From assembly GCA_045591885.1 (NCBI GenBank), contig JAZNTT010000047.1, positions 1 through 57,913 of the forward strand: 57,913 bases of DNA, in the 5' to 3' direction. The number at the start of each line of letters is the position of its first letter. Position 1 is the first letter of the stretch. Origin of the DNA: Eubacteriales bacterium (lineage in GTDB: Bacteria > Bacillota > Clostridia > Oscillospirales > CAG-272). Both the position numbers and the translations under genes were made by a program. This document shows, in pieces, positions 1,072 to 50,339 of the stretch. Below the pieces are notes generated by a model that did no database searches, had not been told where the DNA came from, and worked only from the letters and a program-made list of their open reading frames with translations.

Positions 1072-1097
1072 CAAAAACATCACCCCCCACATACCCG

Positions 1098-1149
1098 ATT
1101 ATAACACGAACGGGTGTTCTTTGTCAATACGAAATCAAACATTTGTTCG
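1098..1149 (-). promoter_or_regulatory. dinB promoter with two LexA (SOS/Cheo) boxes
   Basis: The reverse strand reads TTGACA (1127-1122), an 18-nt spacer, then TATAAT (1103-1098). CGAACGGGTGTTCT at 1107-1120 (GAAC-N4-GTTC) lies inside the spacer. CAAACATTTGTTCG at 1136-1149 is one mismatch from the Firmicute consensus CGAAC-N4-GTTCG. Confidence 0.7.
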
Positions 1150-8779: not shown

Positions 8780-9355
8780 TTAAAGCTCGTCAAGCGAATA
8801 AGAGAACGCTTCAAGCATGTTTTCTCTGAAGTAACGAAGCTCGTCACTGTTGATACCGTCAAGAATCGCTTCAGTCGACTTTCGTGCGGCGGTAAATTCA
8901 CGGTTGCCTGCCGCCTCCTCGGTCAGACACTTGATGTAAGCGCAGAGCTTGTCGGCAATCTTCACGAGCTTAACGCTCTCGGAATCGGCTTCGGTCGGGG
9001 TGAGCAGATTCTCATAGGTCGGGCGAAGCTCGGGCGGAAGCTTTGAAAGCATGCGCTCGATCGAGTGGCGCTCGATCTCGGCGTAATCGCGCTTCGTTTC
9101 GGGACTGAAATATTTGATCGGTGTCGGAAGATCTCCCGTAAACACCTCAGCGGCATCGTGGAAGAGGGCAATGGCGGCGACGCGCTCGGGATCGTAGCCC
9201 TTGCCGTAAACGGTGTTTCCAATAACGGCGAGCGCGTGAGCAATGACTGCCGCCTCCGCTGTGTGCTCGGCGAGGGTTTCACGCGTGACTGAACGCATAA
9301 GCCCCCATCTCGTTATGTATTTTTGTCTGAAAAGCAATGCGAAAAAGCTGTTCAT
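8780..9355 (-). CDS. HD-domain 5'-deoxynucleotidase (YfbR-like)
   Basis: RWGLMRSVTRETLAEHTAEAAVIAHAL...LFHDAAEVFTGDLPTPIKYF...KIADKLCAYIKCLTEEAAGNREF is collinear with E. coli YfbR as I remember it. Confidence 0.85.
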   Translation of the reverse strand: MNSFFALLFRQKYITRWGLMRSVTRETLAEHTAEAAVIAHALAVIGNTVYGKGYDPERVAAIALFHDAAEVFTGDLPTPIKYFSPETKRDYAEIERHSIERMLSKLPPELRPTYENLLTPTEADSESVKLVKIADKLCAYIKCLTEEAAGNREFTAARKSTEAILDGINSDELRYFRENMLEAFSYSLDEL

Positions 9356-9785
9356 CGTTGTATGTCCTCATTTTGCAATTTGCTTCCTTATTATATCATC
9401 ATATGCACACATTGTCAAGGCGGTGAATGAGGTGTGAAAGGGCGTAAGAACGGCACTAAAATGCTATTGTCGTATTTGTAGAAAATTATGTTCACAATTT
9501 GTGGGGATTGCACAAAACGGGAAAAATGTCGAATTTGTTGTGAAAAGTGACAACTAAAACAGCAAAGGTAAATACAAATTACTCTAAAACGCCTTTAGCG
9601 GCGTAAAAATAAGGCTCCTGTATACTTGCAAAGCGCCAAAAAGTAAATTAAAATTACCCACAATGATTTTTCAGAGCTGTAAAAACAGAATTTGCTACCC
9701 CCAAAAACGCTTTGAAAATGTTCAAAACTTCCGATTTTTGCACCGAAATGCATCCTACCGCTTGAAAACATGCGTTGCACGCGCC

Positions 9786-9814
9786 TTGACAGTACGGAAA
9801 AAGTATGCTATTAT
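9786..9814 (+). promoter_or_regulatory. Near-consensus sigmaA promoter driving the 10127-22373 locus
   Basis: TTGACA (9786-9791), a 17-nt spacer, then TATTAT (9809-9814). Confidence 0.65.
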
Positions 9815-10126
9815 ATTATAGTATAAAAATCAAAGGGGATATTCTGCCCTTTTTTAGGGTTTTGAGTGTCTCCGGGGGCCCCCTTTCGGATGAAATTTCT
9901 TATCCTGCCTCCCGCCGTGATGCCTGTTTGCGGCAGGGTAGAAAAGGATAGTGATAGGAACGGTTTGATGCCGACCGGTTCAGAGGAACAAACGGCATAA
10001 AAGGTCACTTTCGGCATTTTCCGAGTTGCGAACGGAAAAACCAAGCGCATCCCCCGTATCCAGCAAAGCCGCAACGGCGGATTTTCCTTACCGTTGGCGG
10101 CAAATTCTCACAGGAGGAAAAGATTG
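9815..10126 (+). promoter_or_regulatory. Long (~300 nt) structured 5' leader, class unknown
   Basis: Several stable hairpins: AAAGGG..CCCTTT followed by T's near 9832-9855, CCTG..CCGC/GCGG..CAGG near 9903-9936, ATGCCGA..TCGGCAT followed by TTT near 9969-10021, and GCCGCAACGG..CCGTTGGCGGC near 10068-10101. No credible ORF. Confidence 0.3.
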
Positions 10127-13100
10127 ATGCAACATTCATTCTTCACGAAGGTACTTTCGGGATTTCTCTCGTTTGTCCTTCTGTTCGGCGGTATCTCCGC
10201 GCTGCCTGCAAGTGCGGCAGAGTCGGAGGCAGATGTAATTGCCGATCTGCTTACCGACATACCGTTCCATGACAATCTTGCGACCGGCGATGCCGGCCAG
10301 CCGTATCTTTCGTACACCGAAAAGCACCAGGCTCCCCTTGCCGAAGCTGAAAAGGTGATAAACGTTGTCGAGGATCTCGACGATGCGAACACTACGGCTG
10401 AGGTTGAGGTTATTGGCAGCCTCGATGGCAAGGAGAACGTTCTCTATATGCCCGAATCGGGAAAGACGTCATGGAAGGTAAATATTCCGAAGACCGCTAA
10501 ATACGCAATAAAGATTGAGTACTACCCGATCGCAGAGAAGGACGGCGTTAAGGTCTCCACGCTCACAACAATCGAGAGAACTCTCTATATTGACGGCTAT
10601 ATTCCTTTCTCGGAGGCAAGATATTTCTACTTCCCGAGAAACTGGGCGTATACCGAGTTCAATTACCGCAAGGACGGAACCTGCATATTCCCGACCGACG
10701 CGGCAGGAAACGATATCCGTCCTATTCGTTACGAGAAGCCCGAGTGGCAGGAGTATTATCTCCGTGACTGGCTCGGTTATACGATGGAGCCCTTCCAGTT
10801 CACGCTGACTGAAGGCGATCACGTAATTACCTTTGAGGCAAACCGTGAGCCGATCGTTATCTCGAAAATAACCCTTTACCCCTACGAAGCGCCTCCCACA
10901 TACTCGGAATTTATCGAGCAGAAGAAGGCAGAGGGCGTAAAGATCATTGAAAAGGCGCTTGGCGGAAAGATCAAGGTTCAGGCAGAAAACCCGACCCTTA
11001 TCTCGAGCGCGAACCTTTATCCGCAGAATGACCGTACCTCGTCTCTTACCCAGCCGCAGGACCCTCAGCAGATCAGATATAACATAGTTAACTCTTCGAC
11101 GGTCAACGAATGGATGAAATACACGGTCGAGGTTCCCGAAACCGGTCTTTACCGCATAGCTATCCGCTTCCGTCAGAACTCGCTCATCGGTATGTTCACG
11201 TCAAGACGTATCCTCGTAAACGGCGAGCTTCAGTTCCAGGAGGCATCGAACATCCGATTCAAGTACAGCTCGTCCTGGCAGTCGACCTACGCGTCGGACG
11301 GCGAGCATAAGTTCCTATTCTATCTCGAAAAGGGTACTAACGAAATAACCTTTGAGACAGTCCTCGGCGACATGACCGAATACGTTTACGAGATCGGCAA
11401 CATGATCGATAAGCTGAATATCGCATACAAGAAGATCCTTCAGCTCACAGGACCTACTCCCGACGCTTACCGCGACTACGGCTTCAAGCGTCTCGTTCCC
11501 GATGCTATCGATACTATCGTTCAGGCATCGAAGGACCTTTACCGCATTGCAGATGAGCTCGAGGCAATTACGGGCGAGCTTGGCGACCAGGTCGCAACGC
11601 TTAACACCATCGCAATGCTCTTTGCGAAGATGAATGACGAATACAAGATCGCTCCCAACTTCGTAACCTTCAAAAACTACATAATCGCTCTTTCGAACTG
11701 GCTCTATGCCTCCCTTTCTCAGCCCCTTAAGGTCGACTACTTCACCGTACAGGGAACTAAGGACGGTCTTCCCAAGGCAAAGGCAAACTTCTTTGAAGCA
11801 ATCTGGTTTGAGATAAGAGCGTTTATCGGCTCCTTCTTCATGGACTATACAACGGTCGACTTCAAGGTCAAGAAGGGCGAAAAGGTCGATAAGAGCATGG
11901 TAATCGAGCAGTGGATCACCTCCGCTCTCGGCCGTGAGGACGCGCTTATAACGCGAGGACTTATTGACGAACACTTTACGTCTCAAACGGGAATACAGGT
12001 CAAGATGAAGGTCATAACCGTCGGTCTTACCGAGGCGATTCTGGCTAACATGGGACCCGATATTGCCCAAATGTCCTCCGTCGATACGATAACCTGGGGC
12101 CTGCGTGACGCGGTCAAGGAGCTTGACACGATGGACGGCTTCGACGAGGTAATCGCAAACCTCGACCAGGCGGCAGTAACTCCTCTCCAGATGAAGAACG
12201 CGAAGGGCGAGTTCCATACCTACGGAATCCCCTCCTCTATGGACTTCTACATGATGTTCTACCGCGCGGACGTTCTCTACGAGGCAGGCGTTAAGGCTCC
12301 GAACACATGGGATGAGCTTTACGATATTCTTCCCGCGCTTCAGAGCGCCGACCTTGAAATCGGTATGCCCGGTACAGTTACGGGAACGAGCGTGTCGGTC
12401 GACGGTCTGACCGGTCTTAAGATATTCCTCTATCAGATGGGCGGCGAGCTCTATGAAAAGGACGGCTACCGCGTAAGCCTTGACGGGAACACCGCGCTTG
12501 ACGCGTTTGAAACGCTCTGTAATATGTTCTCGAAATATAAGTGTTCGGTCAACTATGACCTCACCCGTTTCCGTACGGGAGAAATTCCGATCTACTTCGG
12601 AACCGCCGTCACTACCTATAACACTCTTATGTCCTACTACGATATCCGCGGACTTTGGGAAATGGCACCTTTGTGCGGCGTTGAAGAAAAGAACGAGGAC
12701 GGTACGATAACCATTAACCGTACCTCTCACGTAGCAGTTTCCTCAAGAGTTATCCCGAGAGGCGGCTCGAAGAAGGCTGTTCAGAATTCCTGGCAGTACA
12801 TCAAGTGGATGGCAGAGCCGGAGACTCAGAAGCTTCTCGGCCGCGAGACCATCATGGTAAGCGCAAACCCGACGACGAAGTATAACGCTCCGACGATCGA
12901 CGCGCTTCTCGGTCAGGCGTGGACTGAGAAGGAGCTTGCAACTCTTCGCGAGCAGACACAGTGGCTTGCGGGTATCCCCGAGTATCCCGGTAACTACATT
13001 ATCGGTACCTATGTAAATTCCGCATTCATGAACGTTTACAACACATCCTCCGATGCTACCGAACAGCTTCAGGACCGTGTTGTTTACATCAACAAGGAAA

Positions 13101-13198
13101 TCGCCCGTAAGAGAGACGATTTCAAGATGGACTACATTGACATTGAGGGCAAGTATCACAAGGGCAGATACTATAAGAACCCCGAATATGCGAAATAA
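10127..13198 (+). CDS. Giant extracellular solute-binding protein: signal peptide, ~550-aa N-terminal extension (CBM-like beta-sandwich modules plus a helical region) and a family-1 sugar SBP domain
   Basis: The start at 10127 follows RBS AGGAGG. The signal peptide is MQHSFFTKVLSGFLSFVLLFGGISALPASA. The C-terminal part has SBP-1 hallmarks (YGIPSSMDFYMMFYRADVLYEAGVKAPNTWDELYDILPAL). The N-terminal part has two CBM-like stretches (WKVNIPKTAKYAIKIEYYP; WMKYTVEVPETGLYRIAIRFRQN). Confidence 0.8.
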   Translation: MQHSFFTKVLSGFLSFVLLFGGISALPASAAESEADVIADLLTDIPFHDNLATGDAGQPYLSYTEKHQAPLAEAEKVINVVEDLDDANTTAEVEVIGSLDGKENVLYMPESGKTSWKVNIPKTAKYAIKIEYYPIAEKDGVKVSTLTTIERTLYIDGYIPFSEARYFYFPRNWAYTEFNYRKDGTCIFPTDAAGNDIRPIRYEKPEWQEYYLRDWLGYTMEPFQFTLTEGDHVITFEANREPIVISKITLYPYEAPPTYSEFIEQKKAEGVKIIEKALGGKIKVQAENPTLISSANLYPQNDRTSSLTQPQDPQQIRYNIVNSSTVNEWMKYTVEVPETGLYRIAIRFRQNSLIGMFTSRRILVNGELQFQEASNIRFKYSSSWQSTYASDGEHKFLFYLEKGTNEITFETVLGDMTEYVYEIGNMIDKLNIAYKKILQLTGPTPDAYRDYGFKRLVPDAIDTIVQASKDLYRIADELEAITGELGDQVATLNTIAMLFAKMNDEYKIAPNFVTFKNYIIALSNWLYASLSQPLKVDYFTVQGTKDGLPKAKANFFEAIWFEIRAFIGSFFMDYTTVDFKVKKGEKVDKSMVIEQWITSALGREDALITRGLIDEHFTSQTGIQVKMKVITVGLTEAILANMGPDIAQMSSVDTITWGLRDAVKELDTMDGFDEVIANLDQAAVTPLQMKNAKGEFHTYGIPSSMDFYMMFYRADVLYEAGVKAPNTWDELYDILPALQSADLEIGMPGTVTGTSVSVDGLTGLKIFLYQMGGELYEKDGYRVSLDGNTALDAFETLCNMFSKYKCSVNYDLTRFRTGEIPIYFGTAVTTYNTLMSYYDIRGLWEMAPLCGVEEKNEDGTITINRTSHVAVSSRVIPRGGSKKAVQNSWQYIKWMAEPETQKLLGRETIMVSANPTTKYNAPTIDALLGQAWTEKELATLREQTQWLAGIPEYPGNYIIGTYVNSAFMNVYNTSSDATEQLQDRVVYINKEIARKRDDFKMDYIDIEGKYHKGRYYKNPEYAK

Positions 13199-13235
13199 CG
13201 GCTGCCCGAATTACATCGAAAAGGAGTAAATCATT

Positions 13236-14204
13236 ATGACCAAAACTGAAAAAGATGTAAAGCGTCAGCAGCCGAAGAACCAAAAGTATGCCGGAAAGGC
13301 AATGACGAGAGGAAGATATATCCGCTCGCAGATGAAGAGAAACTGGGTCGGTTACGTAATGGTAGCGCCGTTCCTTATCATGTTCATTGCATTCACGGTC
13401 GTACCCGTCGTTCTTTCGATACTTCTCAGCTTTACGTCCTTCAATATGCTTCAGTTCCCCGAGTGGAAGGGCCTTGACAACTACGTTCAGCTCTTCCTCG
13501 CGGACGATCTGTTTATCACGGCGTTCTCGAATACGATGCTCTTTGCAATCACGACGGGTCCTGCTTCGTTTATCCTGGCGTTCATCGTCGCGTGGTTCAT
13601 AAACGAGCTTTCGCCGCGTCTCCGTGCATTTGTAACGCTCATCTTCTATGCACCGTCCATCGCGGGTACCGCGTACCTCGTCTGGGGTATCTTCTTCAAG
13701 GGAGATATTTACGGATACGTAAACGGTTGGCTCTTAAAGATGGGTATGATAAGTGAGCCGATCGTCTTCTTCAAGGACGTTGACTACATAGTACCGCTTT
13801 GTATCGTCGTCGCTATCTGGACGTCACTTGGTACAACGTTCCTTTCCAATATCGCAGGTCTGCAGGGCGTCGACCGTTCGCTTTACGAGGCGGGCGCGAT
13901 CGACGGAATAAAGAACCGTTGGCAGGAGGCGTGGTATATTACGCTTCCCTCGATGCGTTCGATCCTTCTCTTCGGAGCAGTCCTTGCGATCACCGGCTCC
14001 TTCGGATTCGGTGCCATAGTTAACAACCTCTGCGGAAACCCCTCGACAGACTACGTCGCATGGACACTTCAGCATCATTTGCAGGAGTACATGGGAATAC
14101 GTTTTGAGTACGGTTACGCATCTGCAATTGCCGTCGTCCTCTTTGCAATAATGATGGGCGCGAACGCGCTTGTGCAGAAATTCCTTTCGAAGGTGGGTGA
14201 GTAA
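13236..14204 (+). CDS. Sugar ABC transporter permease (MalF/CUT1 type)
   Basis: Six TM segments and an EAA loop, SLYEAGAIDGIKNRWQEAWYITLPSM. Confidence 0.9.
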   Translation: MTKTEKDVKRQQPKNQKYAGKAMTRGRYIRSQMKRNWVGYVMVAPFLIMFIAFTVVPVVLSILLSFTSFNMLQFPEWKGLDNYVQLFLADDLFITAFSNTMLFAITTGPASFILAFIVAWFINELSPRLRAFVTLIFYAPSIAGTAYLVWGIFFKGDIYGYVNGWLLKMGMISEPIVFFKDVDYIVPLCIVVAIWTSLGTTFLSNIAGLQGVDRSLYEAGAIDGIKNRWQEAWYITLPSMRSILLFGAVLAITGSFGFGAIVNNLCGNPSTDYVAWTLQHHLQEYMGIRFEYGYASAIAVVLFAIMMGANALVQKFLSKVGE

Positions 14205-14205
14205 T

Positions 14206-15075
14206 ATGGCGATAAAGAAATTAAGAGTTCGCGGACACCGCGTCGTTCTTAACCGCTCAAAGGGCGGAGACGTCGGAATTACCATAATGCTCATTCTCCT
14301 CGGAGCACTCATGTTCTTGCCTATGTGGTATCTTCTCATTGAGTCGCTTAAGCCGCTTGGTGAAAGAAACATAACACCGCCGCTTCTCTACGTTATGAAG
14401 CCGACGGCGCAAAACTTCATCGACCTTTTCTCGAACATTAACAGTACTTGGGTACCGATCAGCCGTTACCTCTTCAATACGATAATTATATCGGTTTCGG
14501 CAACCTTCGGCTGTCTCGTATTCGGCTCTCTTACTGCTTACGCGCTCTCGAAGATCAAGTTCCCGGGACGCGTTGCAATGTTCAAAATGATCCAGTGGTC
14601 GCTCATGATCAGCTCGACCATCACCGGTATTACCAACTTCTTTATCTTCATTTGGCTCGGTTGGCTTAATACCTATTGGATCTCGATAATTCCCGTATGG
14701 GCATCGACCCTCGGCCTTTACCTTATGAAGCAGTTTATCGACGCAAACGTCTCCGACGAAATGATCGAGGCTGCACGAATCGACGGCGCGGGAGAATTCA
14801 GAATCTACTGGCAGATAGTAATGCCGCTCGTTAAGCCGGCATGGCTTACGCTTCTCGTTACCACCTTCCAGCAGGTATGGAACGCAGGTGCTTCGACTTA
14901 CGTTTGGTCCGAGCAGCTCAAGACCTTTAACTCGGCAATCGCATCGATAAGCGGCGTATCCGTCGGAGCATCGAGTGCGGGCTCCGTCGTAATGATGAGC
15001 GTGCCGATCATAATCTTCATTATAAACCAGTCCCAAATCGTCGAAACAATGGCTTCGTCGGGTATGAAGGACTAA
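14206..15075 (+). CDS. Carbohydrate ABC transporter permease (MalG/CUT1 type)
   Basis: The ATG at 14206 lies one base after the upstream stop. EAA loop MIEAARIDGAGEFRIYWQIVMPLV. Confidence 0.9.
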   Translation: MAIKKLRVRGHRVVLNRSKGGDVGITIMLILLGALMFLPMWYLLIESLKPLGERNITPPLLYVMKPTAQNFIDLFSNINSTWVPISRYLFNTIIISVSATFGCLVFGSLTAYALSKIKFPGRVAMFKMIQWSLMISSTITGITNFFIFIWLGWLNTYWISIIPVWASTLGLYLMKQFIDANVSDEMIEAARIDGAGEFRIYWQIVMPLVKPAWLTLLVTTFQQVWNAGASTYVWSEQLKTFNSAIASISGVSVGASSAGSVVMMSVPIIIFIINQSQIVETMASSGMKD

Positions 15076-15087
15076 AAGGAGGTCGCA

Positions 15088-17205
15088 ATGAAAAACAGAT
15101 TTACAAAATTTATTGCGGTCCTCATCGCAGTCCTTACGCTTCTCCCGATGGCGGTTATGGCGGAGCCGTATCAGACCTATACTTACAGTATAGACGGAGA
15201 GCAGCTTTCTTCTCCCCACGCATATACGCCTAACGTCATTCTTGACTCCGGCGATATGGGGCTACCGGTAACGCTCAAAAAAGTATCTGACATGGTCGTA
15301 GACAAAAAGGGTAACGTATACCTTGCAGATAAGGATGCGAACGCCATTTACGTCCTCGACAGAAACTTTAAGTACCGCTTTACGATCAATGCCTTTATCA
15401 ACAGCAACGGTATTGAGGACTCATTCAATAATCCCAACGGTTGTTTTGTAACGGAGAGAAATATCTACGTTGCAGATACCGATAACAGGCGTATCGTAAT
15501 TTTCGACCTTGACGGTAACTATGTAAGGCATCTGGAAGAGCCGAAGTCGGATATCTTCGAGGATAACGCAAATTACCGCCCGACCGCTATCGCAGTTGAT
15601 GCTTCCGACCGTATCTACGTCGTATCCCCCGATATCTATCAGGGTATTCTTTCGCTTGATGCGAACGGTCAGTTCCAGGGATATCTCGGTGCGCAGAAGG
15701 TATCGTATAACGCTTGGGAAATCTTCTGGAGAACCTTCCAGACCGCAAAGCAGAGAAGCCAAGGTAAAAAGAACCTCTCGACATCGTATAACAATATAAC
15801 GATCGACGATGAGGGCTTCATCTACTGTACTTCTTCGGCAATTAAGGCGGACGACCAGCAGGCGTCTATCATGAACAAGACCGCAGACTATTCGCCGATC
15901 AGAAAGTTTAACGCCGCAGGTAAGGATATCCTCGGACGTAACGGCTTCTTCGGCCCCGGCGGTGAAGTCAAGATTCAGGGAGGCGAGCTTTCAAATAAGC
16001 CCTCGAGAATCGTTGACGTAGCCCTTGGTCCGTCCGGCTCCTGGTCGATAATCGACGCAGACCGCTCGAAGATATTTACTTACGACCAGTACGGTAATCT
16101 TCTCTTTGCCTTCGGCGACCGCGGAGACCTCCTCGGTAACATAAGCAATATGGCAGTTGCCATTGCATACCAGGATACCAAGCTCCTCGTGTTCGACGGC
16201 CTTCTCCAGACTATTACAGTCTATACCCGTACAGAGTACGGTGACGTCCTTATAAGAGCGCTTCAGAACGAAATCGACCGTAAGCACGGCGAGGCAGTTA
16301 ACGACTATCAGGACATTCTTAAGAGAAACAGTAACTTCGACGCAGCATACATCGGTATCGGTAAGGCGCTTTACCGTCAGGGTGAGTATGAAGAAGCCAT
16401 GAGGATGTTTGCAAGTGCGTACGAGACCGAAAACTATTCTAAGGCACTGAAGGAGCTTCGTCAGAATTGGGCGGATAAGTACTTTATACTCATTCCGATC
16501 GTCGTCGTGGCATTCCTTTTTGCGGTCGTTAAGTTCTTTGGATACGCAGGCAAGGTAAACAAGAAGACCGCTCTCAAGAAGGGCAAAAAGACCTTCAAGG
16601 AGGAAGTTCTTTATGCCTTCCATATCATATTCCACCCCTTCGATGGCTTCTGGGATCTGAAGCACGAAAAACGCGGTTCGGTCAGAGGTGCACTATTCTG
16701 GCTCGCGCTTGCACTCGTTGCAGTTTGCTACCAGTCGGTAGGCAGAGCTTACGTATTCAATCCCCGTGCGTCCTATACCTCAATGTTCGGCTCACTCCTT
16801 TCGCTCTTGGTGCCTGTCGCACTGTGGGTAGTCGGAAACTGGTGCCTTACTACTCTGTTTGAGGGCGAAGGAAGCATGAAGGATATCTTCATTGCAACCT
16901 GCTACTGTGCAGTACCGCTCGTGCTGCTTCTCATTCCCGCAACGGCAATAACCAATATTCTCACGCTCAGTGAGGCAACGATCTACGAAATGCTCGTGTC
17001 GATAGCATGGGTATGGGTAGGACTCCTTCTGTTCTTCGGAACGATGGTTACCCACGATTATCCTCTCGGTAAAAACGTCCTTACCTGTATCGGAACTATT
17101 ATCGCAATGGCAGTCATCATATTCTGTGTACTGCTCTTCTCGACACTTATAATGAAGATGATATCCTTCATTACGGGTATCGTGGTCGAATTGTCGTATC
17201 GGTAA
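15088..17205 (+). CDS. Signal peptide, NHL-repeat beta-propeller, TPR, and a C-terminal Yip1-family multi-TM domain
   Basis: Repeated NHL-like blades (GNVYLADKDANAIYVLD; RNIYVADTDNRRIVIFD; DRIYVVSPD). TPR-like AYIGIGKALYRQGEYEEAMRMF. This is followed by one TM segment plus a 5-TM Yip1-like block (HPFDGFWDLKHEKRGS...). Confidence 0.75.
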   Translation: MKNRFTKFIAVLIAVLTLLPMAVMAEPYQTYTYSIDGEQLSSPHAYTPNVILDSGDMGLPVTLKKVSDMVVDKKGNVYLADKDANAIYVLDRNFKYRFTINAFINSNGIEDSFNNPNGCFVTERNIYVADTDNRRIVIFDLDGNYVRHLEEPKSDIFEDNANYRPTAIAVDASDRIYVVSPDIYQGILSLDANGQFQGYLGAQKVSYNAWEIFWRTFQTAKQRSQGKKNLSTSYNNITIDDEGFIYCTSSAIKADDQQASIMNKTADYSPIRKFNAAGKDILGRNGFFGPGGEVKIQGGELSNKPSRIVDVALGPSGSWSIIDADRSKIFTYDQYGNLLFAFGDRGDLLGNISNMAVAIAYQDTKLLVFDGLLQTITVYTRTEYGDVLIRALQNEIDRKHGEAVNDYQDILKRNSNFDAAYIGIGKALYRQGEYEEAMRMFASAYETENYSKALKELRQNWADKYFILIPIVVVAFLFAVVKFFGYAGKVNKKTALKKGKKTFKEEVLYAFHIIFHPFDGFWDLKHEKRGSVRGALFWLALALVAVCYQSVGRAYVFNPRASYTSMFGSLLSLLVPVALWVVGNWCLTTLFEGEGSMKDIFIATCYCAVPLVLLLIPATAITNILTLSEATIYEMLVSIAWVWVGLLLFFGTMVTHDYPLGKNVLTCIGTIIAMAVIIFCVLLFSTLIMKMISFITGIVVELSYR

Positions 17206-17222
17206 CTACTAAAGAAGGAGAG

Positions 17223-20200
17223 ATGAAAATGAAAACTTATAAGAAATTTTTATCGGCTGTTATGGCCTTCTGTATGTTGCTTGGTACGCTTTCCGTTATC
17301 TTGGCGCTTCCTGCATTTGCCGCCGAGGAAACCGAAACCCCGCAAGAACCGATAAACGCTGTCGACTTTTTCACTTATGAATTTAATACAAAAGAGGAAA
17401 AGGTCGCATCGATGGACCTTATGGCAGAGCGCTATGAATATAAGCTCTACGCCGAGCCGCTGACAGGCGAGGTCGCAATCGTTAATACGAAAACAGGCGA
17501 TATACTTATGACAAACCCCTACGGTGTCGGTTCACTTAAAGCTGCCGATGCCGTAAAGAAAAACCTGCTTTCGCAGGTCATAATCAACTATCAGAGTGTT
17601 GACGGATTGATTGAAGCCAGCAACATGAGCAGCTTCGAAAGTGCTGCCGAGCTCAAGCAGATAAAGGTAAAGCCGATCAAAAACGGTACCCGTGTTGAGT
17701 ATGTAATCGGTAAGCAGGAAACACGTTATCTCTTCCCCGAGCAGATCGAGAAGAGCCGTTTCGAAGAAGAGCTGCTCGGCAAGATCCCGTACGATCCCAA
17801 TACCTATGATTCAAAAACCGCTACCTACGAGGAAAAACAGGCGCGTCTTCACTACAATAAGCTGAAGGCATCCTACGTTCTCAAGGACCCGACCGATGAA
17901 AGCGTTCCGGAATCCGTTCGTGTCGGTATGCTCACACAGTATCCGGTTCTTGACAAAACCTCCGATGTCGGTAAGAACAGCCCGGTTAAGGCACTTTATG
18001 TGTTTGATACGAAGGCAAATGTGAAGCTCAAGAACGAGATTGAGTATATCATCAAGCTGTACTGCCCGAACTACACCTATGAGGATAAGCAGTACGACCA
18101 TGATCTTTGCGCTTATGAGGAAAAGAGACAGAACCCCGTTCAGTTCAGAATTGCTCTTGAGTATTATATTGACGATACCGGTCTCCGCGTAAGAATACCC
18201 GCTAACGGTATCCGTTACGATCAGAGCACCTATCAGCTCAATAAGTTGACCTGTCTTCCTTACATGGGAGCGGCTGACTCTAACTTCACCGGCTATACGA
18301 TGTTCCCCGACGGATCCGGCACTCTTACCAGATTCGAGGATATAAAAGCGGGAGGACAGTCCTTTACTCTTTATGCAACTCCCTACGGACAGGACCACGT
18401 ATACAGAAACACGAAGCAGATACCGAAGAATATGATGCCGACTCGTATGCCGGTATTCGGTATGGTTGAGGATACTCAGTATACTACTACCGACGAAGCA
18501 AGCGGTGAAAGCTCGACTTACGTTCGCAAGAGCGGCTACTTCGCTATAATCGAAGAGGGCGAAGCGCTTGCGAAAATATGTGCGACCCACGGCGAAAAGG
18601 GACATCACTATTACGCTACCGCGATAGAGTTTGAGCCGCGTCAGAAGGATAGCTTCTCGCTCAGCTCGATCGTATCGGTCGGCGGAAGCGGAAACTTCGT
18701 AGGTGTTCTTGACCGCAGATACACCGGTAACTTTACGATTCGTTACATAATGCTTTCTGACCTTGAGTACGGTCAGAATCATGGAATTGATATGACGGGC
18801 TGCTTCGATACAAGCTATCTCGGAATGGCACATGCGTACCGCTCCAGACTTGTGACGACGGGCGCTCTCATTGACGAGAAGCTCGAGGAAGGCGATATCC
18901 CGCTCTACCTCGAAGCTCTCGGCGCAATGAGCGTTCAGGAAAAGTTCCTTTCGATCCCGGTAACCGTCAAGAAGGCGCTTACCACGTTCAACGACGTTAA
19001 GAAAATCCACGCAGAGCTTGGCGAATCGGGCATAACAAACATTGTTTTCAAGCTCACGGGATTTATGAACGGCGGTCTTAAGGGCACGCTTGCCAATCAG
19101 ATCGACGTTGAAAAGGTCGTAGGCGGAAATTCGGGCTTGAAGAAGCTCCAGAAGTATGCAAACGAAAAGAGCTTCGAGATATATCTCGACGCAGACTTCT
19201 CGTATACCTATAAGGACACTCTCTTCGACGGCTTTAACCGCCGCAAGGATGCGCTCCGCGCAATAGATGACCGCTTCGTTCAGAAGCAACAGTATGATGC
19301 AGTCCTTCAGAAGTTCACAAGCACGGGCTTGCTCGTAATTGCTCCCTCTTCGTTTGAGAGCATCTTCAATAAGCTCCATAAGGATGCTAAGAAGCTCAAG
19401 CTTGAGGGCCTCGCTCTGGGCGCTCTAGGTTCCGACCTTTCCTCCGACTTTAACGAGGATGAGCCGTACAACCGCGAGGACTCAAAGCAGCAGGTGCTCG
19501 ACACTCTTGACAAGGTTCGTAAGGCAGGCTACGATCTTATGATAGACGGAGGTAACGCTTACGCGGTTTCTTACGCGAAGCATATCCTTAATATCCCGCT
19601 CGTATCCTCTCGCCGTGCGCAGGCATCGGAGGCGATCCCCTTCTTTGCTCTCGTTTACCACGGATATATCAATTATGCAGGTTCGCCGACCAATATGGCG
19701 GGTGACATGCGTTACGAGACACTTAAGATTCTTGAAAACGGTGCAAACCCCTACTTCATTCTCGTTTACCGCAACTTCGAGAAGCTGAAGGAGGATAAGG
19801 ATCTTTCCAAGTACTTCTCCATCTCCTACCAGAACTGGAAGGAAGACCTTATTGAGACCTATACGGCTATTAACAAGGCGCTTTCTCCCGTAAGAAGCTC
19901 GACAATCGTCGGTCACGGCTTCCTTACCGGTATGAGAATGCCGACCGCAGAGGAGCTTGAGGCTGACCTTCTCGAAAAGGAGCAGGCAGACAAAGAGCAG
20001 GCGGATAAGGAACAGGCAGAGAAGGATGATGCCGAAAGAGAAGAACAGCTCAAGGATCATCTCGGAAATAACTATATACCTAACGATACCGAAACGGAAA
20101 AGCCTGAGATTGCCGCTCCGACCGAAACCGTTTCCAAGTATCTGGTTGACAACGGAATGATAGTTAAAGTAACGTTTGAGAACGGCTATAGCTTCATTCT

Positions 20201-20327
20201 TAACTACAACTATTTCGACGTAACCGTTGAAGAACTCGGAGATACCGTTATTTCGGCTCTCGGATACGTTGTGCTTAACGCAAACGGCGAAATAGTAGTC
20301 AACAGCGGAGAGGAGGCGGCAGCATGA
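17223..20327 (+). CDS. Large secreted protein of unknown function (DUF5696-like by recollection)
   Basis: Signal peptide ...ILALPAFAAEE. I recognise no catalytic motif with certainty. The FPDGSG and LDADFSY stretches resemble DUF5696 proteins that co-occur with Yip1-family genes. The alternative start at 17229 has better RBS spacing. The stop overlaps the next gene's ATG. Confidence 0.65.
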   Translation: MKMKTYKKFLSAVMAFCMLLGTLSVILALPAFAAEETETPQEPINAVDFFTYEFNTKEEKVASMDLMAERYEYKLYAEPLTGEVAIVNTKTGDILMTNPYGVGSLKAADAVKKNLLSQVIINYQSVDGLIEASNMSSFESAAELKQIKVKPIKNGTRVEYVIGKQETRYLFPEQIEKSRFEEELLGKIPYDPNTYDSKTATYEEKQARLHYNKLKASYVLKDPTDESVPESVRVGMLTQYPVLDKTSDVGKNSPVKALYVFDTKANVKLKNEIEYIIKLYCPNYTYEDKQYDHDLCAYEEKRQNPVQFRIALEYYIDDTGLRVRIPANGIRYDQSTYQLNKLTCLPYMGAADSNFTGYTMFPDGSGTLTRFEDIKAGGQSFTLYATPYGQDHVYRNTKQIPKNMMPTRMPVFGMVEDTQYTTTDEASGESSTYVRKSGYFAIIEEGEALAKICATHGEKGHHYYATAIEFEPRQKDSFSLSSIVSVGGSGNFVGVLDRRYTGNFTIRYIMLSDLEYGQNHGIDMTGCFDTSYLGMAHAYRSRLVTTGALIDEKLEEGDIPLYLEALGAMSVQEKFLSIPVTVKKALTTFNDVKKIHAELGESGITNIVFKLTGFMNGGLKGTLANQIDVEKVVGGNSGLKKLQKYANEKSFEIYLDADFSYTYKDTLFDGFNRRKDALRAIDDRFVQKQQYDAVLQKFTSTGLLVIAPSSFESIFNKLHKDAKKLKLEGLALGALGSDLSSDFNEDEPYNREDSKQQVLDTLDKVRKAGYDLMIDGGNAYAVSYAKHILNIPLVSSRRAQASEAIPFFALVYHGYINYAGSPTNMAGDMRYETLKILENGANPYFILVYRNFEKLKEDKDLSKYFSISYQNWKEDLIETYTAINKALSPVRSSTIVGHGFLTGMRMPTAEELEADLLEKEQADKEQADKEQAEKDDAEREEQLKDHLGNNYIPNDTETEKPEIAAPTETVSKYLVDNGMIVKVTFENGYSFILNYNYFDVTVEELGDTVISALGYVVLNANGEIVVNSGEEAAA
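19977..20021 (+). repeat. Three tandem 15-nt coding repeats, (K-E-Q-A-D/E)x3
   Basis: aaggagcaggcagac / aaagagcaggcggat / aaggaacaggcagag. They encode EKEQADKEQADKEQAEK in an acidic linker near the C-terminus of the 17223-20327 product. Confidence 0.7.
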
Positions 20328-21316
20328 CGGCGGTAAAAAAGAAAAAAAGCGTCAAGAAACGCAAGAAGATAGTCTCGCTTGATAAGAAAAAGGCAAGATC
20401 CGGCTGGCTGTTCGTTCTTCCCTTTATTATCGGAATTATCCTTATATATCTTCCGATAGTTGTTGATTCTATCACATACAGCTTCACGAAAATAGTACCG
20501 ATTCCTATGTCCAAGGGCGGCGGATACCGTCTCGAGTCTGTCGGTTTTGAGCATTACTACAAGGCGCTGACAGAGGATCCGAAATTCACCGAGGTGCTTA
20601 TCTCGGGCGTTAAGGACCTCGTGTTTGATATTCCCGCGATAGTAATCTTCTCGCTCTTTGTAGCGGTACTTCTTAACAAGAAGATCCTCGGACGCGCAGC
20701 GTTCCGTGCGATATTCTTCATTCCTGTCATTCTTTCGACAGGACTTATAAACGAGATAACGGGCCTTGCTTCGGCAGGTCAGGAATACATGGGACAGACC
20801 GGCACCGTTGACGATGGATCAGGCTCATCCTCGGCAGACGGAATTTCGCAAATAGTATCTGTAACCGATTTCAGATGGCTATTCCAGAATATGCAGGTTG
20901 GTAACGGACTTATCAAGTATGTAACGGGCATTGTAAACGATATCTATAACATCATCAACCGCTCCGGTGTACAGATGCTTATTTTCCTTGCCGGACTTCA
21001 GTCTATCTCCCCCGCGATATACGAGTCCTGCTCGATAGACGGCGCGACGGGATGGGAAACCTTCTGGAAGATAACGTTCCCGATGATAAGCCCGATGATC
21101 CTCGTAAACGCGATCTACACGGTTATTGACTCCTTTACGTCGAGCGATAGCCAGATAATGTCGTACATCAGCGAAAAGGCGACGGACATCATGGGAGGCG
21201 GCGGACGAGAGATCGCTACCGCAATGTCGTGGCTCTACTTCCTCATAGTTATTGGAATAATTGCTTTGGTAGCGGCTGTTCTTTCGGCTTATATCTTCTA
21301 CCAGAGACGTGATTAA
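20324..21316 (+). CDS. Sugar ABC transporter permease (MalF type), second pair
   Basis: ATGA overlap with the upstream gene. Lys-rich N-terminus, then TM segments. EAA loop AIYESCSIDGATGWETFWKITFPMI. Confidence 0.9.
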   Translation: MTAVKKKKSVKKRKKIVSLDKKKARSGWLFVLPFIIGIILIYLPIVVDSITYSFTKIVPIPMSKGGGYRLESVGFEHYYKALTEDPKFTEVLISGVKDLVFDIPAIVIFSLFVAVLLNKKILGRAAFRAIFFIPVILSTGLINEITGLASAGQEYMGQTGTVDDGSGSSSADGISQIVSVTDFRWLFQNMQVGNGLIKYVTGIVNDIYNIINRSGVQMLIFLAGLQSISPAIYESCSIDGATGWETFWKITFPMISPMILVNAIYTVIDSFTSSDSQIMSYISEKATDIMGGGGREIATAMSWLYFLIVIGIIALVAAVLSAYIFYQRRD

Positions 21317-21329
21317 GGAGGGGACTGTT

Positions 21330-22373
21330 ATGAATAATGCTAAAACAAACTCTCCGGAGATCAAGAGAGAATCCAAAAACAAGATAAGAGTAGATTTTGA
21401 GAGAACGAGCTGGTGGACCCGTTTCCGCCTTCGTTTCCTTACGGGAACCGCGGTTGCTAAGGGTCTTGCATGGCTGTTCAGATTCCTTCTTCTCCTCGGA
21501 ATCTCCTACGTAATTCTCTTCCCGTTCTATACGAAGATCGCTTCGTCTTTCATGGGACGTAACGACTTTATCGACGTAACGGTAAAGCTTATTCCGAAGA
21601 GACCCACGCTTGATACCTATAAGGCGGTAATCGAGCATCAGGAGTATTTTGACGGACTGGTGGGAACGGCTACGCTGTCGCTTATCTGTGCAGTCCTTCA
21701 GACTTTGATTTGCGCAATAATCGGTTACGGCTTTGCAAAGTATAAGTTCAAGGGCAGAAAGCTTCTTTTCGCGCTCGTTGTATTTACGATGGTCATTCCT
21801 CACGAGACGCTTCGTACGTCGATGTTCATGAAGTTCCAGAATTTCGATATAGGAATGGGTAACTTTGGCATTCTGAAAATGCTGGGTATCGAGCCAATGG
21901 ATATGACCGAAAGCTATATACCGATGATTATGCTTTCTGCAACGGGACTTGCGTTTAAGAACGGACTCTTCATATTTATGATGAGACAGTTCTTCTCGGG
22001 CGTGCCCGATGAGCTTGAGGAGTCGGCGTATATTGACGGCTACGGCCCGTTCAAGACGTTCTTTAAGATCATCATTCCGATTTCGATTCCGATGCTTATA
22101 ACGATATTCCTCTTCTCGTTTGCATGGCAGTGGACAGATAACTTCTACGTTACTCTCTTTAACCTGCAGCAGAACGATAACATTTTCCTTCTTAACGATA
22201 TAAAGGGTGTTCCTGCAGTACTGAAGGTAAAGGATTATCCGGGTGAAGCACTCTTCACCTCTGCGGTTTACAGTACCGAAGCAATTCTCGTAATGCTTCC
22301 TCTCGTTGTACTCTACCTCTTCTGCCAGAAGTACCTCGTTCAGGGTATCGAACGCTCCGGTATCGTCGGCTAA
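21330..22373 (+). CDS. Carbohydrate ABC transporter permease (MalG type), second pair
   Basis: The start at 21330 follows RBS AAGGAGGGG. EAA loop ELEESAYIDGYGPFKTFFKIIIPIS. Confidence 0.9.
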   Translation: MNNAKTNSPEIKRESKNKIRVDFERTSWWTRFRLRFLTGTAVAKGLAWLFRFLLLLGISYVILFPFYTKIASSFMGRNDFIDVTVKLIPKRPTLDTYKAVIEHQEYFDGLVGTATLSLICAVLQTLICAIIGYGFAKYKFKGRKLLFALVVFTMVIPHETLRTSMFMKFQNFDIGMGNFGILKMLGIEPMDMTESYIPMIMLSATGLAFKNGLFIFMMRQFFSGVPDELEESAYIDGYGPFKTFFKIIIPISIPMLITIFLFSFAWQWTDNFYVTLFNLQQNDNIFLLNDIKGVPAVLKVKDYPGEALFTSAVYSTEAILVMLPLVVLYLFCQKYLVQGIERSGIVG

Positions 22374-22383
22374 CAAAAAAGAA

Positions 22384-22416
22384 AATCGCTCGTATGGCTT
22401 CATACGAGCGATTTTT
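22384..22416 (+). terminator. Rho-independent terminator of the ABC locus
   Basis: AATCGCTCGTATG-gctt-CATACGAGCGATT followed by TTTT. Confidence 0.85.
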
Positions 22417-22425
22417 AATAAGAAG

Positions 22426-22451
22426 AAAAAACACCCGAAAGGGTGTTTTTT
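22426..22451. terminator. Bidirectional terminator hairpin
   Basis: AAAAAACACCC-gaaa-GGGTGTTTTTT, with A-run and T-run flanks on both sides. Confidence 0.75.
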
Positions 22452-22454
22452 CTA

Positions 22455-23199: not shown

Positions 23200-24792
23200 A
23201 TGAAAAAGGAAAAACAGCTTGACTCAAACGGTCAGCGAAAATTCGGCATACGAGACAAGCTCGCTTATGCGGCGGGAGATCTCGGCTGTAACATGAGCTT
23301 CTCGCTCAAAAACACGGTTCAGACATTCTGGCTCGTGTATATGATGCTCGAAACAGGGCTTCTTTCGATACTCCTTCTTCTCGTTCAGATCTGGGATGCG
23401 GTAAATGACCCGATGATTGGAACTCTTATCGACAACGACAGAAGAAAATACAAAATGGGCAAATTCAAGACCTATATTCTCATAGGTGCTTGCGGTCTGC
23501 TTGTCGGCGGAGCGGCAGTATTTCTTCCGTTCCCGGGCGCTCCGAAGGTTCTCAAAGCGATCCTTTTCGTGCTCGGATATATCGTATGGGACGCATTCTA
23601 TACGATTGCAAACGTGCCATACGGCTCAATGCTCTCGATCGTTACCGAGGATGTCGGTGAACGCGCACAGCTTTCGACGTGGCGCTCTATCGGCTCTATG
23701 ATCGGTAATATTCTCCCGAGCACTATTCTGCCTTTCCTTATTTGGCGTAAGGTCAAATTCGACGGCACGACCGACTTCCTCAGCAAAATCGAGATCCCGA
23801 AGGACGCGGCGGACAAATTCAGCCCCGATAATATTATTATCAATCCCCTAACGAAAAAGCCTTATGAAATAGGCGACGAAGTATTAAGCCCCCTTACGGG
23901 TAAGCCTCTTGAGGTTCTGCTTGGCGACAGAGTATTCTGGGCGGCGCTCATTATGGGAATCATCGGCTTCCTCGCGTTCATATTCATGATAAAGAATATA
24001 ACTGTCCGCGTTGACGAAAACACCGTCAAAACGAATGAAAAAACCGAAAAGTTCAACATCATAAAGGCATTCGGTAAGTTTATGAAAAACCGTCCCGCAG
24101 TCGGTGCGACGTTGGCGGCAATGGGTATGTTCCTCGGCATGAACGCGGCGGCAACCGCTACGACGATCATGTTCGCGACCTACTTCAATATGGCATCGCT
24201 TTCGGGGCTTGTACAGATGATAGGCTTCCTGCCGATGTTCTTCTTTATGCCGTTCATCACGAAGATCGTTAAGAAATACGGTAAAAAGGAAGCGTCGGTC
24301 GTCGGCACCGCGATATCGCTTGTCGGCGGCGTTATAATGCTCATCTTCCCGATGATAAGTAACGTAAAGACCTCGCTTGTCGTATATCTGCTCGGACTTG
24401 TTATCTACGGTATCGGTATGGGCTTCTACACCTGCGTATCGTGGGCAATGATGGGCGACGCTATCGACTATAACGAATGGAAATTCGGCACCCGTGAAGA
24501 AGGAACGGTATATTCGCTCCACTCCTTCTTCCGTAAGCTCGCACAGGGAATCGGCCCGTCTATGGTTCTTCTTCTTATGGGCTGGCTCGGATACAAGGCG
24601 AAGTACGGCACTATCGGACAGTCGGCGGCAACCTCGCACAATATGTGCTGGCTCGTAGCGGGACTTTATATGTTCAGCGCAGTGCTTCAGTTTATCGGCA
24701 TCGCGGTTATATATAACCTCGACAAGAAAACTCTCGATAAGATGAATACAGAGCTTGCAGAAAGAAAGGCAGAGGCAGAACAAGGAGAATAA
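23200..24792 (+). CDS. Glycoside-pentoside-hexuronide (GPH):cation symporter family MFS transporter
   Basis: KLAYAAGDLGCNMSF...IWDAVNDPMIGTLID is the GPH signature region. It has 12 TM-like segments and an enlarged central loop. Confidence 0.85.
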   Translation: MKKEKQLDSNGQRKFGIRDKLAYAAGDLGCNMSFSLKNTVQTFWLVYMMLETGLLSILLLLVQIWDAVNDPMIGTLIDNDRRKYKMGKFKTYILIGACGLLVGGAAVFLPFPGAPKVLKAILFVLGYIVWDAFYTIANVPYGSMLSIVTEDVGERAQLSTWRSIGSMIGNILPSTILPFLIWRKVKFDGTTDFLSKIEIPKDAADKFSPDNIIINPLTKKPYEIGDEVLSPLTGKPLEVLLGDRVFWAALIMGIIGFLAFIFMIKNITVRVDENTVKTNEKTEKFNIIKAFGKFMKNRPAVGATLAAMGMFLGMNAAATATTIMFATYFNMASLSGLVQMIGFLPMFFFMPFITKIVKKYGKKEASVVGTAISLVGGVIMLIFPMISNVKTSLVVYLLGLVIYGIGMGFYTCVSWAMMGDAIDYNEWKFGTREEGTVYSLHSFFRKLAQGIGPSMVLLLMGWLGYKAKYGTIGQSAATSHNMCWLVAGLYMFSAVLQFIGIAVIYNLDKKTLDKMNTELAERKAEAEQGE

Positions 24793-24793
24793 A

Positions 24794-30198: not shown

Positions 30199-30241
30199 TT
30201 TCGGATACGAACCCGTTAGGAATTATTAAACCCTAATAAAA

Positions 30242-30273
30242 AGCGGTGGGCGAAACTCCTTTCGCTCACCGCT
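30242..30273 (+). other. Intercistronic 14-bp hairpin after the SBP gene
   Basis: AGCGGTGGGCGAAA-ctcc-TTTCGCTCACCGCT (one G-U pair) with no T-run. It lies in a 306-nt gap before the permease genes. Confidence 0.5.
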
Positions 30274-30504
30274 GACTTCGTCTTTGCAATAAGACAAAAA
30301 ACGCACAATAATCCCCATATAACAGTAAAATCGCACTGAACAAGATAAAAAAAGACAGCATACGGCAGAACAGCTTGGCTGTAATTTTGTTTTCTGCCAA
30401 GCTCCCTCACAAATCTCCCCAACACGGTTGCGTTGGAGAGGACTGTGACGGTTTTTACCGTAATTTTTAAGCAGGAAAATAACAATAACAGAGGAGAAAG
30501 ACCT

Positions 30505-31512: not shown

Positions 31513-31514
31513 TT

Positions 31515-33104: not shown

Positions 33105-33109
33105 GTCAG

Positions 33110-38039: not shown

Positions 38040-38288
38040 TATAATCCTTTCAAGGGTTGTATGGTGTTATCCTTAGAATTATATCAAAAAAAATTTGATA
38101 TGGCAACAGTTTTTTCATTATTTAAGTGAAAATCCTTAATAAACATAGAGCAAAACAAAATCGTTCGTCCAAAACCATCTGCAAAAACGAAACTGCGCCA
38201 CGGTTTTATCTTTTTTTCGCGCGAAAAACGAGGTAAGTATAAAACCACCCTAATATCGTCAAAAAGAGTTAAAAGGTGATTGAGCGAC

Positions 38289-38322
38289 TTCGACAGACTG
38301 TGCGTCCGACTTAGTGTAAAAT
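38289..38322 (+). promoter_or_regulatory. Candidate spoIIE promoter with a Spo0A box
   Basis: TTCGACA (38289-38295) is the reverse complement of the 0A-box TGTCGAA. TAAAAT at 38317-38322 is a possible -10. Confidence 0.35.
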
Positions 38323-38354
38323 GTGAAATACTAAAACAAAGGACGGACAAAAAA

Positions 38355-50322: not shown

Positions 50323-50339
50323 AAGGTAGGGCAAAAATA

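Follow-up and report, generated by a model that had tools for sequence, protein, structure and literature searches.

Organization of the cassette

The 57,913-nucleotide (nt) contig JAZNTT010000047.1 of a Eubacteriales bacterium (assembly GCA_045591885.1), whose whole length is referred to here as the window, contains a cassette of seven genes (g1 to g7) at positions 10127-22373, which combines the membrane and binding components of a sugar importer of the ATP-binding cassette (ABC) type with two large proteins of other kinds. ORF (open reading frame) calls and Pfam searches place all seven genes on the + strand, with spacers that are short or even negative, and comparison with related loci shows that their order is fixed. 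The genes and their associated control elements are as follows (aa, amino acids):

9786-9814, + strand: promoter-like site of the sigma-70 type, TTGACA-17 nt-TATTAT with an upstream TG, matching at 11 of 12 positions
9821-10126, + strand, with its core at 9890-10012: conserved structured leader RNA, a candidate cis-regulatory element
10127-13198, + strand: g1, solute-binding protein (SBP) of 1023 aa; Pfam SBP_bac_8 only at aa 615-910 (58 bits)
13236-14204, + strand: g2, MalF/UgpA-type permease of the first pair; BPD_transp_1 (about 29 bits)
14206-15075, + strand: g3, MalG/UgpE-type permease of the first pair; BPD_transp_1; ORF extends from 14170
15088-17205, + strand: g4, membrane protein of 705 aa; Pfam NHL/SGL propeller, TPR and Yip1
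17223-20327, + strand: g5, exported protein of 1034 aa; Pfam DUF5696 (E 7e-144)
20324-21316, + strand: g6, MalF/UgpA-type permease of the second pair, with a long extracellular insert; BPD_transp_1
21330-22373, + strand: g7, MalG/UgpE-type permease of the second pair; BPD_transp_1 (about 48 bits); ORF extends from 21309
22382-22416 and 22425-22452, + strand: two tandem hairpins with T runs that resemble intrinsic terminators, located after the g7 stop codon and recognized by reading the sequence

The likely start codons of g3 and g7 are the ATGs at 14206, two bases past the g2 stop codon, and at 21330, respectively, and the start of g6 overlaps the end of g5 by 4 nt. Judging from the position of the promoter-like site, transcription would start near 9821. 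The initial annotation of this DNA had described seven closely packed, co-directional genes between one near-consensus promoter and a strong terminator, two MalF/MalG-type permease pairs accompanied by a single SBP, and two large non-transporter proteins lying between these pairs. Our ORF calls, the promoter and terminator sites, the Pfam and NCBIfam searches and the comparison of paralogues bear out each of these points. The same annotation had stated that the locus contains neither an ATPase nor a regulator. Indeed, Pfam searches of the cassette proteins identified no ABC ATPase and no helix-turn-helix or two-component protein; what had been overlooked is the conserved structured RNA in the leader.

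Conservation and distribution

Related loci were collected by a search with an alignment of g5 relatives, which yielded 79 genome loci, and through look-ups of DUF5696 proteins of 2112, 2545 and 1626 aa, which contributed five more, giving a total of 84. In all of the 79 loci, the order g1-g2-g3-g4-g5-g6-g7 is maintained on one strand as far as the contigs reach, and searches of translated ORFs with the seven window proteins show that this synteny persists down to 37-38% g5 identity. The same arrangement surrounds the 1626- and 2112-aa DUF5696 proteins in those of the five added loci that are long enough (L080, L081 and L084), whereas both contigs encoding the 2545-aa protein are too short to judge gene order. 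Since the order is identical in every locus of sufficient length, its conservation lies far beyond chance. The flanks, by contrast, are variable, with every flanking gene family confined to at most 14 of the 79 loci and with recurrent neighbours that have housekeeping functions (aminotransferase, ROK, carbamoyl-phosphate synthase, alanyl-tRNA synthetase and HD phosphohydrolase). The persistence of the gene order in changing surroundings therefore identifies the cassette as an autonomous, strongly co-selected module. The initial annotation had proposed a dedicated unit, to be doubted if synteny proved not to be conserved, and this proposal has held, the order being kept in the related loci. The seven-gene architecture appears to be undescribed in the literature searched.

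Nearly all of the loci originate from uncultured Clostridia, Eubacteriales or Oscillospiraceae of ruminant, bird and human guts, and the cassette is thus found in a broad clade of uncultured gut Clostridia, made up of Oscillospirales-like metagenome-derived genomes. The 79 contigs carry 79 different accession prefixes and hence represent different assemblies, so that the cassette is apparently present in a single copy per genome in this sample. In three cases, a full Clostridia-type cassette is found under an unexpected label, namely Methanocorpusculum sp. (L049), Selenomonadaceae (L005) and Erysipelotrichaceae (L076). These labels probably reflect errors in metagenome binning and, less probably, transfers.

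Permeases and energy supply

The four permeases fall into two types. Sequence similarity links g2 with g6 (E 1e-12) and g3 with g7 (E 1e-11), with cross-type comparisons remaining near noise, and NCBIfam places g2 and g6 nearest to UgpA/MalF-type proteins (UgpA and PotB scoring best for g2) and g3 and g7 nearest to UgpE/MalG-type proteins. With scores of 29-48 bits on the BPD_transp_1 model, all four are divergent. On the basis of these sequence relationships, which link like with like and not across types, g2/g3 and g6/g7 are therefore classified as two complete F/G pairs that diverged anciently. As noted in the initial annotation, an EAA loop is present in each permease; we found that these loops are conserved across 68-76 orthologues each (68 for g2). 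Nucleotide-binding subunits are therefore expected to dock on both pairs, neither of which would represent a decayed copy; this fits the earlier suggestion of two working translocators. An exporter role was rejected, because permeases with a BPD_transp_1 domain that are accompanied by an SBP are importers.

No ABC ATPase adjoins the cassette in any of the 84 loci. The only ABC ATPase match in this search, an Opp-type ORF about 1.6 kb upstream of g1 at the edge of locus L024, was set aside as unrelated. Within the 57.9-kb window, ATPases are limited to proteins of the Opp type (33110-36593) and the ABC-2 type (49342). The initial annotation considered the missing ATPase atypical. However, CUT1 systems of Firmicutes commonly have no ATPase gene of their own and share MsmK/MsmX, so that its absence corresponds to the usual situation.

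The binding protein g1

The AlphaFold model of g1 (pLDDT 83.9) begins with a hydrophobic segment and a low-confidence linker of about 40 residues. These elements are followed by two beta-sandwich domains reminiscent of carbohydrate-binding modules (CBMs), spanning residues of about 70-250 and 280-412, a four-helix bundle (416-530) and, finally, a MalE-type binding domain of the CUT1 oligosaccharide type (about 534-1000). The second beta-sandwich shows faint similarity to Golvesin_C and CBM35. In Foldseek searches and in sequence and profile searches of the PDB, the SBP domain matches proteins that bind sophoro-oligosaccharides (Lin1841), cycloisomalto-oligosaccharides, cellodextrins and maltodextrins; the Foldseek matches, which include GltA, have TM-scores over the targets of 0.69-0.79. 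NCBIfam holds no specific name for g1. Conservation of its N-terminal domains equals that of the SBP domain, and the additional beta-sandwiches, as modelled, fit a role in glycan capture, consistent with the surface-capture function suggested in the initial annotation.

Predicted N-terminal export signals are present in g1, g4 and g5. Unlike most Gram-positive binding proteins, which are lipoproteins, 61 of 64 g1 orthologues have no lipobox; the g5 orthologues, in turn, show neither a lipobox nor an LPXTG motif nor a C-terminal transmembrane helix. Hydropathy analysis reveals long N-terminal hydrophobic segments in both g1 and g5, which may act as uncleaved anchors, failing which the two proteins would have to be retained through protein contacts.

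The candidate enzyme g5

The g5 protein matches the Pfam family DUF5696 (PF18952) with 481 bits, compared to a cut-off of 25.6. This family comprises 4223 clusters at 50% identity (E<=1e-3), with many proteins of 1200-2500 aa and a maximum of 2545 aa. An AlphaFold2 model of g5, generated from 32 homologues (pLDDT 80.5, pTM 0.75), shows an N-terminal hydrophobic helix, an extra N-terminal domain, a beta-sandwich and a (beta/alpha)8 barrel (aa ~555-900), followed by a helix of 40 residues, a disordered acidic linker and a small C-terminal beta domain. When compared with the PDB by Foldseek, this model retrieved members of several glycoside hydrolase (GH) families:

Rank 1: GH129-like 3,6-anhydro-D-galactosidase DagB of Zobellia (5opq), E 1.5e-27
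Ranks 4-5: GH129 alpha-N-acetylgalactosaminidase NagBb of Bifidobacterium bifidum (5wzp, 5wzn), E 1.0e-19 and 1.5e-19
Rank 12 and below: GH36-type galactosaminidase, GH101 endo-alpha-N-acetylgalactosaminidases (from rank 13), GH36 alpha-galactosidases and, after these, GH31, GH13 and GH97, E ~1e-11 and weaker

Together with 5opq and 5wzn, 8rzk is also among the best matches, and the TM-scores over the target reach 0.66-0.68 for DagB and NagBb. DagB consists of a beta-sandwich, a TIM barrel and an Ig-like domain (PMC5698469). The g5 model conforms to the layout of the GH129 fold, with its N-terminal beta-sandwich, central (beta/alpha)8 barrel and C-terminal beta domain, and g5 shares with GH129 proteins the motifs LxGW/F-x-x-GG and GGxxGxxxL. 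On the other hand, identity in the structural alignments amounts to only about 10-12%, and g5 differs from GH129 enzymes in being about 400 aa longer, with its extra N-terminal domain, long helix and C-terminal beta domain, as well as in being exported and embedded in a transporter operon.

At the sequence level, a phmmer search of the PDB with g5 gave no match, a Pfam search with the barrel alone retrieved no glycoside hydrolase family at E<=10, and NCBIfam provides no specific name. A connection becomes apparent in the reverse direction: a 66-residue segment of NagBb (residues 294-360) reaches 34.8 bits (E 9e-9) with the Pfam DUF5696 model, thus exceeding the cut-off of 25.6, and the same segment scores weakly on the GH101 model. 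Indirectly, these profile matches therefore place DUF5696 in a common sequence neighbourhood with GH129 and GH101. A search for GH129 proteins with the NagBb fragment returned only three short fragments. As a separate observation, two metagenomic fragments that are 67-74% identical to NagBb (P0383 and P0384) carry a precomputed PF18952 annotation, and the Pfam DUF5696 model therefore overlaps the sequence space of GH129.

Conserved carboxylates are found at or after barrel strands of g5 in the 32 aligned sequences (E564, D656, D658, D738, D742 and D775). Among these, D742 is conserved in all 32 sequences and D738 in 29, both following the strand at 729-731. In GH129, the nucleophile is an aspartate at the end of barrel strand 4 (D435 in NagBb, D486 in DagB). 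Attempts to map the catalytic residues, by extrapolation from the two NagBb segments that could be aligned and by phmmer with residues 690-826 of g5, were ambiguous between D738 and D742.

On the strength of the structural and profile matches, g5 most likely acts outside the cell as a retaining alpha-glycosidase, in a family that is itself uncharacterised. The extracellular enzyme postulated in the initial annotation thereby receives strong, if indirect, support from the structural matches to GH129, GH101 and GH36 and from the profile match between DUF5696 and NagBb. By contrast, the accompanying statement that DUF5696 lacks an assigned function was too strong, the family being a remote relative of the CAZy families GH129 and GH101.

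The membrane protein g4

In every locus, the gene for g4 lies between the two permease pairs. The protein starts with a signal peptide, followed by an extracellular beta-propeller of the NHL/SGL type, TPR repeats, a single transmembrane helix, a basic cytoplasmic loop and a Yip1 domain. Its sequence matches in the PDB are NHL propellers, including PknD (1rwi), and TPR proteins. Hydropathy analysis assigns the transmembrane helix to residues 466-484, followed by the lysine-rich loop, and reveals five hydrophobic segments between residues 530 and 689, corresponding to a five-helix Yip1 domain (PF04893, aa 512-679; 48.3 bits versus a cut-off of 28.6). Combined with the domain order, it places the propeller and the TPR repeats outside of the cell. 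Among the large cassette proteins, g4 is the best conserved, with a peak of conservation in the part comprising the TPR repeats, the transmembrane helix, the loop and the Yip1 domain. This sequence pattern suits conserved contacts within the membrane.

The initial annotation regarded Yip1 proteins as having no known prokaryotic function, thereby overlooking YknW, a Yip1-family accessory subunit that is needed for the assembly of the ABC exporter YknXYZ (PMC4887032). As in the cassette, the YknWXYZ system of Bacillus subtilis comprises a bacterial Yip1 membrane protein encoded together with an ABC transporter (PMC4887032). However, YknYZ is an exporter of the MacB type with a membrane fusion protein, whereas the partners of g4 are importer-type permeases, and YknW lacks the propeller and TPR ectodomain that is seen in g4.

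The leader RNA

The stretch of about 305 nt between the promoter and g1 is almost invariant in the window and five related loci whose proteins are 72-83% identical. In the alignment of these sequences, both promoter hexamers are likewise invariant, and conservation ends abruptly upstream of the -35 hexamer, beyond which the sequence is not conserved. With a profile of the leader, six more distant loci were also found to carry it ahead of g1. Its core 15-mer, CCGG[CT]TCAGAGGA[AG][CT], occurs 18 times with at most one mismatch on both strands of the 1.57 Mb formed by the window and the loci, and all 18 copies lie on the coding strand and precede the start of the g1 ORF by 17-152 nt. In an exact-pattern scan of metagenomes, three of the four matches lay directly upstream of g1-like genes, with the fourth looking like a chance occurrence.

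The consensus structure obtained with RNAalifold contains a long-range helix (UUCUUAU/AUAGGAA) with an extension, which encloses a hairpin of variable length. It is followed by a second hairpin, whose loop region holds CCGGUUCAGAGGAACAAA. Compensatory variation is observed in several places: one pair of the extension is U-A in six and A-U in five sequences, the inner stem of the second hairpin alternates between GUUC/GAAC and GCUC/GAGC (11 versus 5) and is never broken, and its outer stem exists in the variants GCCG/CGGC, CAGCCG/CGGCUG, GGCUG/CAGCC, GGCUA/UAGCC and GCUGA/UCAGC.

Apart from the window, the element was seen in L001-L006, L008, L009, L026, L032, L033, L040, L042, L045 and L050 and further in L070, L085, L087 and L088. 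Another 47 loci with a full g1 (for instance L010-L025) do not contain the 15-mer and instead share a different conserved promoter and leader start upstream of g1 (TTGACTTTTTT...TATGATATTATATTTGTATGAAAAAATCGGCGG). As judged by its sequence conservation and covariation, the leader is thus a candidate for a cis-regulatory RNA that is peculiar to one subclade of the cassette. A comparison of positions 9300-10200 of the window with Rfam gave only a noise-level match (E 0.8) and no curated family, and the leader may represent a new cis-regulatory RNA. The motif GGAUUGU resembles the start of ribonucleic antiterminator (RAT) sites. A PRD/RAT antitermination mechanism was nevertheless set aside, as there is no BglG-type protein or phosphotransferase system gene nearby.

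Proposed function and alternative explanations

Based on the gene content and order, the predicted folds, the EAA loops and the conservation and covariation of the leader, we consider it reasonably probable that the cassette is a self-contained operon for the extracellular capture, cleavage and uptake of a glycan. In the corresponding model, transcription would proceed from the promoter at 9786-9814 through the leader RNA, which probably gates expression. The g5 enzyme, g1 and the ectodomain of g4 would then be exported, allowing g5 to cut a polymer or glycoconjugate into oligosaccharides, with an alpha-linked Gal/GalNAc-type linkage as its likeliest target. The beta-sandwiches of g1 could hold the glycan, and its MalE-like domain would bind the released oligosaccharide and hand it over to both the g2/g3 and the g6/g7 heterodimer, each powered by a shared MsmK/MsmX-type ATPase that is encoded elsewhere. 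Anchored in the membrane by its Yip1 domain, g4 might use its propeller and TPR repeats to organise or retain the exported parts beside the permeases, similar to YknW. It is conceivable, albeit unlikely, that all seven proteins go further and form a surface machine of fixed stoichiometry, equivalent to a Gram-positive counterpart of the 'utilisome' of Bacteroidota, in which g4 docks g1 and g5, the latter as the founder of a new GH family remote from GH129, on two distinct translocators, with expression under the control of a riboswitch-like leader RNA of a new class that is restricted to this cassette.

Several observations weigh against the proposed function as a glycan-degrading uptake system. 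We know of no precedent for a single binding protein that serves two translocators, and the neighbouring genes in the 79 loci, which include no conserved regulator, give no consistent clue to the substrate. No paper mentioning DUF5696 or PF18952 was found in the literature searched. Moreover, even at E<=10, Pfam reports no match of g5 to PF11308 (GH129) or PF12905 (GH101). In a search of the PDB with the g5 family profile, NagBb appeared only at a non-significant E value of 2.6, in an alignment that pairs LtGfangG with LDGWAQPG and VPflglvlHgy with VPLYNLVYHDC and that supplied the 66-residue segment described above. Finally, D738 or D742, together with D775, are putative, if natural, candidates for the nucleophile and the acid/base, and D775 is acidic in only 29 of the 32 sequences.

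The doubled permeases could alternatively be explained by two independent importers that are merely co-located, with g1-g2-g3 forming an ordinary CUT1 system and g6-g7 relying on a second SBP encoded elsewhere and taking up another substrate, while g4 and g5 serve only one of the two. The gene order can indeed be read as an SBP with two permeases, followed by g4 and g5 with two permeases. In addition, the permease pairs are deeply diverged from each other, and in type I importers, as far as known, each translocator works with one or more binding proteins of its own. However, the order is unbroken, and neither module occurs alone in 84 loci with otherwise variable flanks. The tight spacing and overlap of the genes, their single promoter and single terminator region and the absence of a second SBP gene within 10 kb in the related loci also argue against this arrangement, which we therefore judge to be improbable.

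A different possibility concerns the activity of g5, which could be an inactive glycan-binding protein, a transglycosylase or a phosphorylase-like enzyme, in a system that takes up pre-existing oligosaccharides or recycles the envelope polysaccharide of its own cell instead of breaking down a polymer from the diet or the host. This notion would be compatible with the failure to map the catalytic residues of g5 and with the presence of one cassette per genome in 79 genomes, unlike the multi-copy, diversified loci of foragers, a situation that could suit a housekeeping function. Yet, there are conserved acidic residues on or near the barrel strands (the invariant D742 and the nearly invariant D738 as well as D656, D658 and E564), and the closest structures all belong to active retaining glycosidases. 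Furthermore, DUF5696 proteins form a very large family and, like secreted glycanases, are often fused to extracellular domains, reaching the length of 2545 aa mentioned above. Such a non-hydrolytic role of g5 is thus quite improbable. Even more doubtful, in our view, is the idea that g4 is primarily a sensor, whose NHL propeller binds the substrate or product, as has been proposed for the sensor propeller of PknD, and modulates the transporter, rather than a scaffold. While NHL propellers do serve as extracellular sensor domains, as reflected in the match to PknD, and while the cassette encodes no protein regulator, no kinase, helix-turn-helix, cyclase or other output domain can be recognised in g4. 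Moreover, its strongest conservation lies in the membrane part and not in the propeller, and the only bacterial Yip1 protein studied acts in transporter assembly.

Relationship to known systems

The components of the cassette are of known kinds, comprising a CUT1 importer, a protein with a fold of the GH129/GH101 superfamily and a Yip1 accessory protein. Like the CUT1 importers (TC 3.A.1.1 type) exemplified by MalEFGK2 of Escherichia coli and the MsmEFGK-type systems of Firmicutes, it contains an oligosaccharide-binding domain of the SBP_bac_1/8 type and, twice over, MalF/UgpA- and MalG/UgpE-like permeases with EAA loops. It differs from these importers in having two permease pairs for one binding protein, in the low scores of its permeases on BPD_transp_1, in the two large non-transporter genes embedded in a fixed order between the pairs, and in the composition of g1, a non-lipoprotein of 1023 aa that features two beta-sandwiches and a helical bundle ahead of its SBP fold.

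Functionally, the closest analogy is provided by the GH101 enzyme EngBF of Bifidobacterium longum and the ABC transporter for galacto-N-biose/lacto-N-biose (GNB/LNB) with its GltA-type SBP. In this bifidobacterial pathway from GH101 to the GNB/LNB importer, the same logic applies, in that a large alpha-glycosidase outside the cell, sharing the fold superfamily, releases an oligosaccharide for a CUT1 importer. However, the bifidobacterial enzyme and transporter are not joined in one fixed operon, and the system lacks both a Yip1 protein and a second permease pair. The comparison extends to the logic and not to the substrate, and we make no claim that the cassette acts on the same mucin core-1 structure.

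The cassette also shares features with polysaccharide utilisation loci (PULs), both the Sus-like systems of Bacteroidota and their Gram-positive equivalents, in that the genes needed to bind, cleave and transport a glycan lie together and are presumably regulated together. It deviates from them in the absence of a SusC/SusD pair and of a protein regulator, in its occurrence as a single copy per genome in our sample and in its invariant rather than mosaic composition. By definition, a Gram-positive PUL unites an enzyme for glycan degradation and a transporter with a transcriptional regulator. The cassette supplies a transporter and a putative enzyme, but it encodes no protein regulator and none is conserved in the flanks, a role that may be taken by the leader RNA. 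The doubled-translocator architecture, the embedded Yip1-propeller protein, the multi-domain non-lipoprotein SBP and the dedicated leader RNA all appear to be undescribed in the literature searched.

The link of DUF5696 to GH129 and GH101 offers a testable activity for an abundant protein of uncultured Clostridia from animal and human guts. In addition, the invariant architecture implies that there are ABC sugar importers with unexplained parts, namely a second permease pair, a Yip1-anchored propeller and an SBP with glycan modules. The leader RNA has a clear genetic context and can be directly probed for a ligand, and the identity of the substrate would tell what widespread Oscillospirales-like organisms eat in the gut.

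Other features of the window

Directly downstream of the cassette, at 23200-27073, the window encodes an MFS_2 symporter of the glycoside-pentoside-hexuronide type and a GH2 glycosidase with a DUF4982 domain. L003, a close relative, is the only other locus with this pair (15777-19722), which therefore lies outside of the conserved unit but may act on the sugar that is imported. Another unusual ABC locus, this one of the Opp/Dpp type, spans positions 27439-36593 and encodes an SBP_bac_5 protein of 919 aa, an OppC-like permease of 529 aa, an OppD-like ATPase of 742 aa, whose ABC_tran domain is split by a large insert, and an OppF-like ATPase of 423 aa. A cluster comprising an ABC-2-type ATPase, an ABC-2 permease, ABC_transp_aux and DUF4340 (49342-54187) is unrelated to the cassette. 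Two ORFs of 209 and 161 aa near the start of the window (475-1104 and 1704-2189) have no Pfam match at E<=0.001, and a SpoIIE gene at 38280-40712 marks the host as a spore-forming Firmicute.

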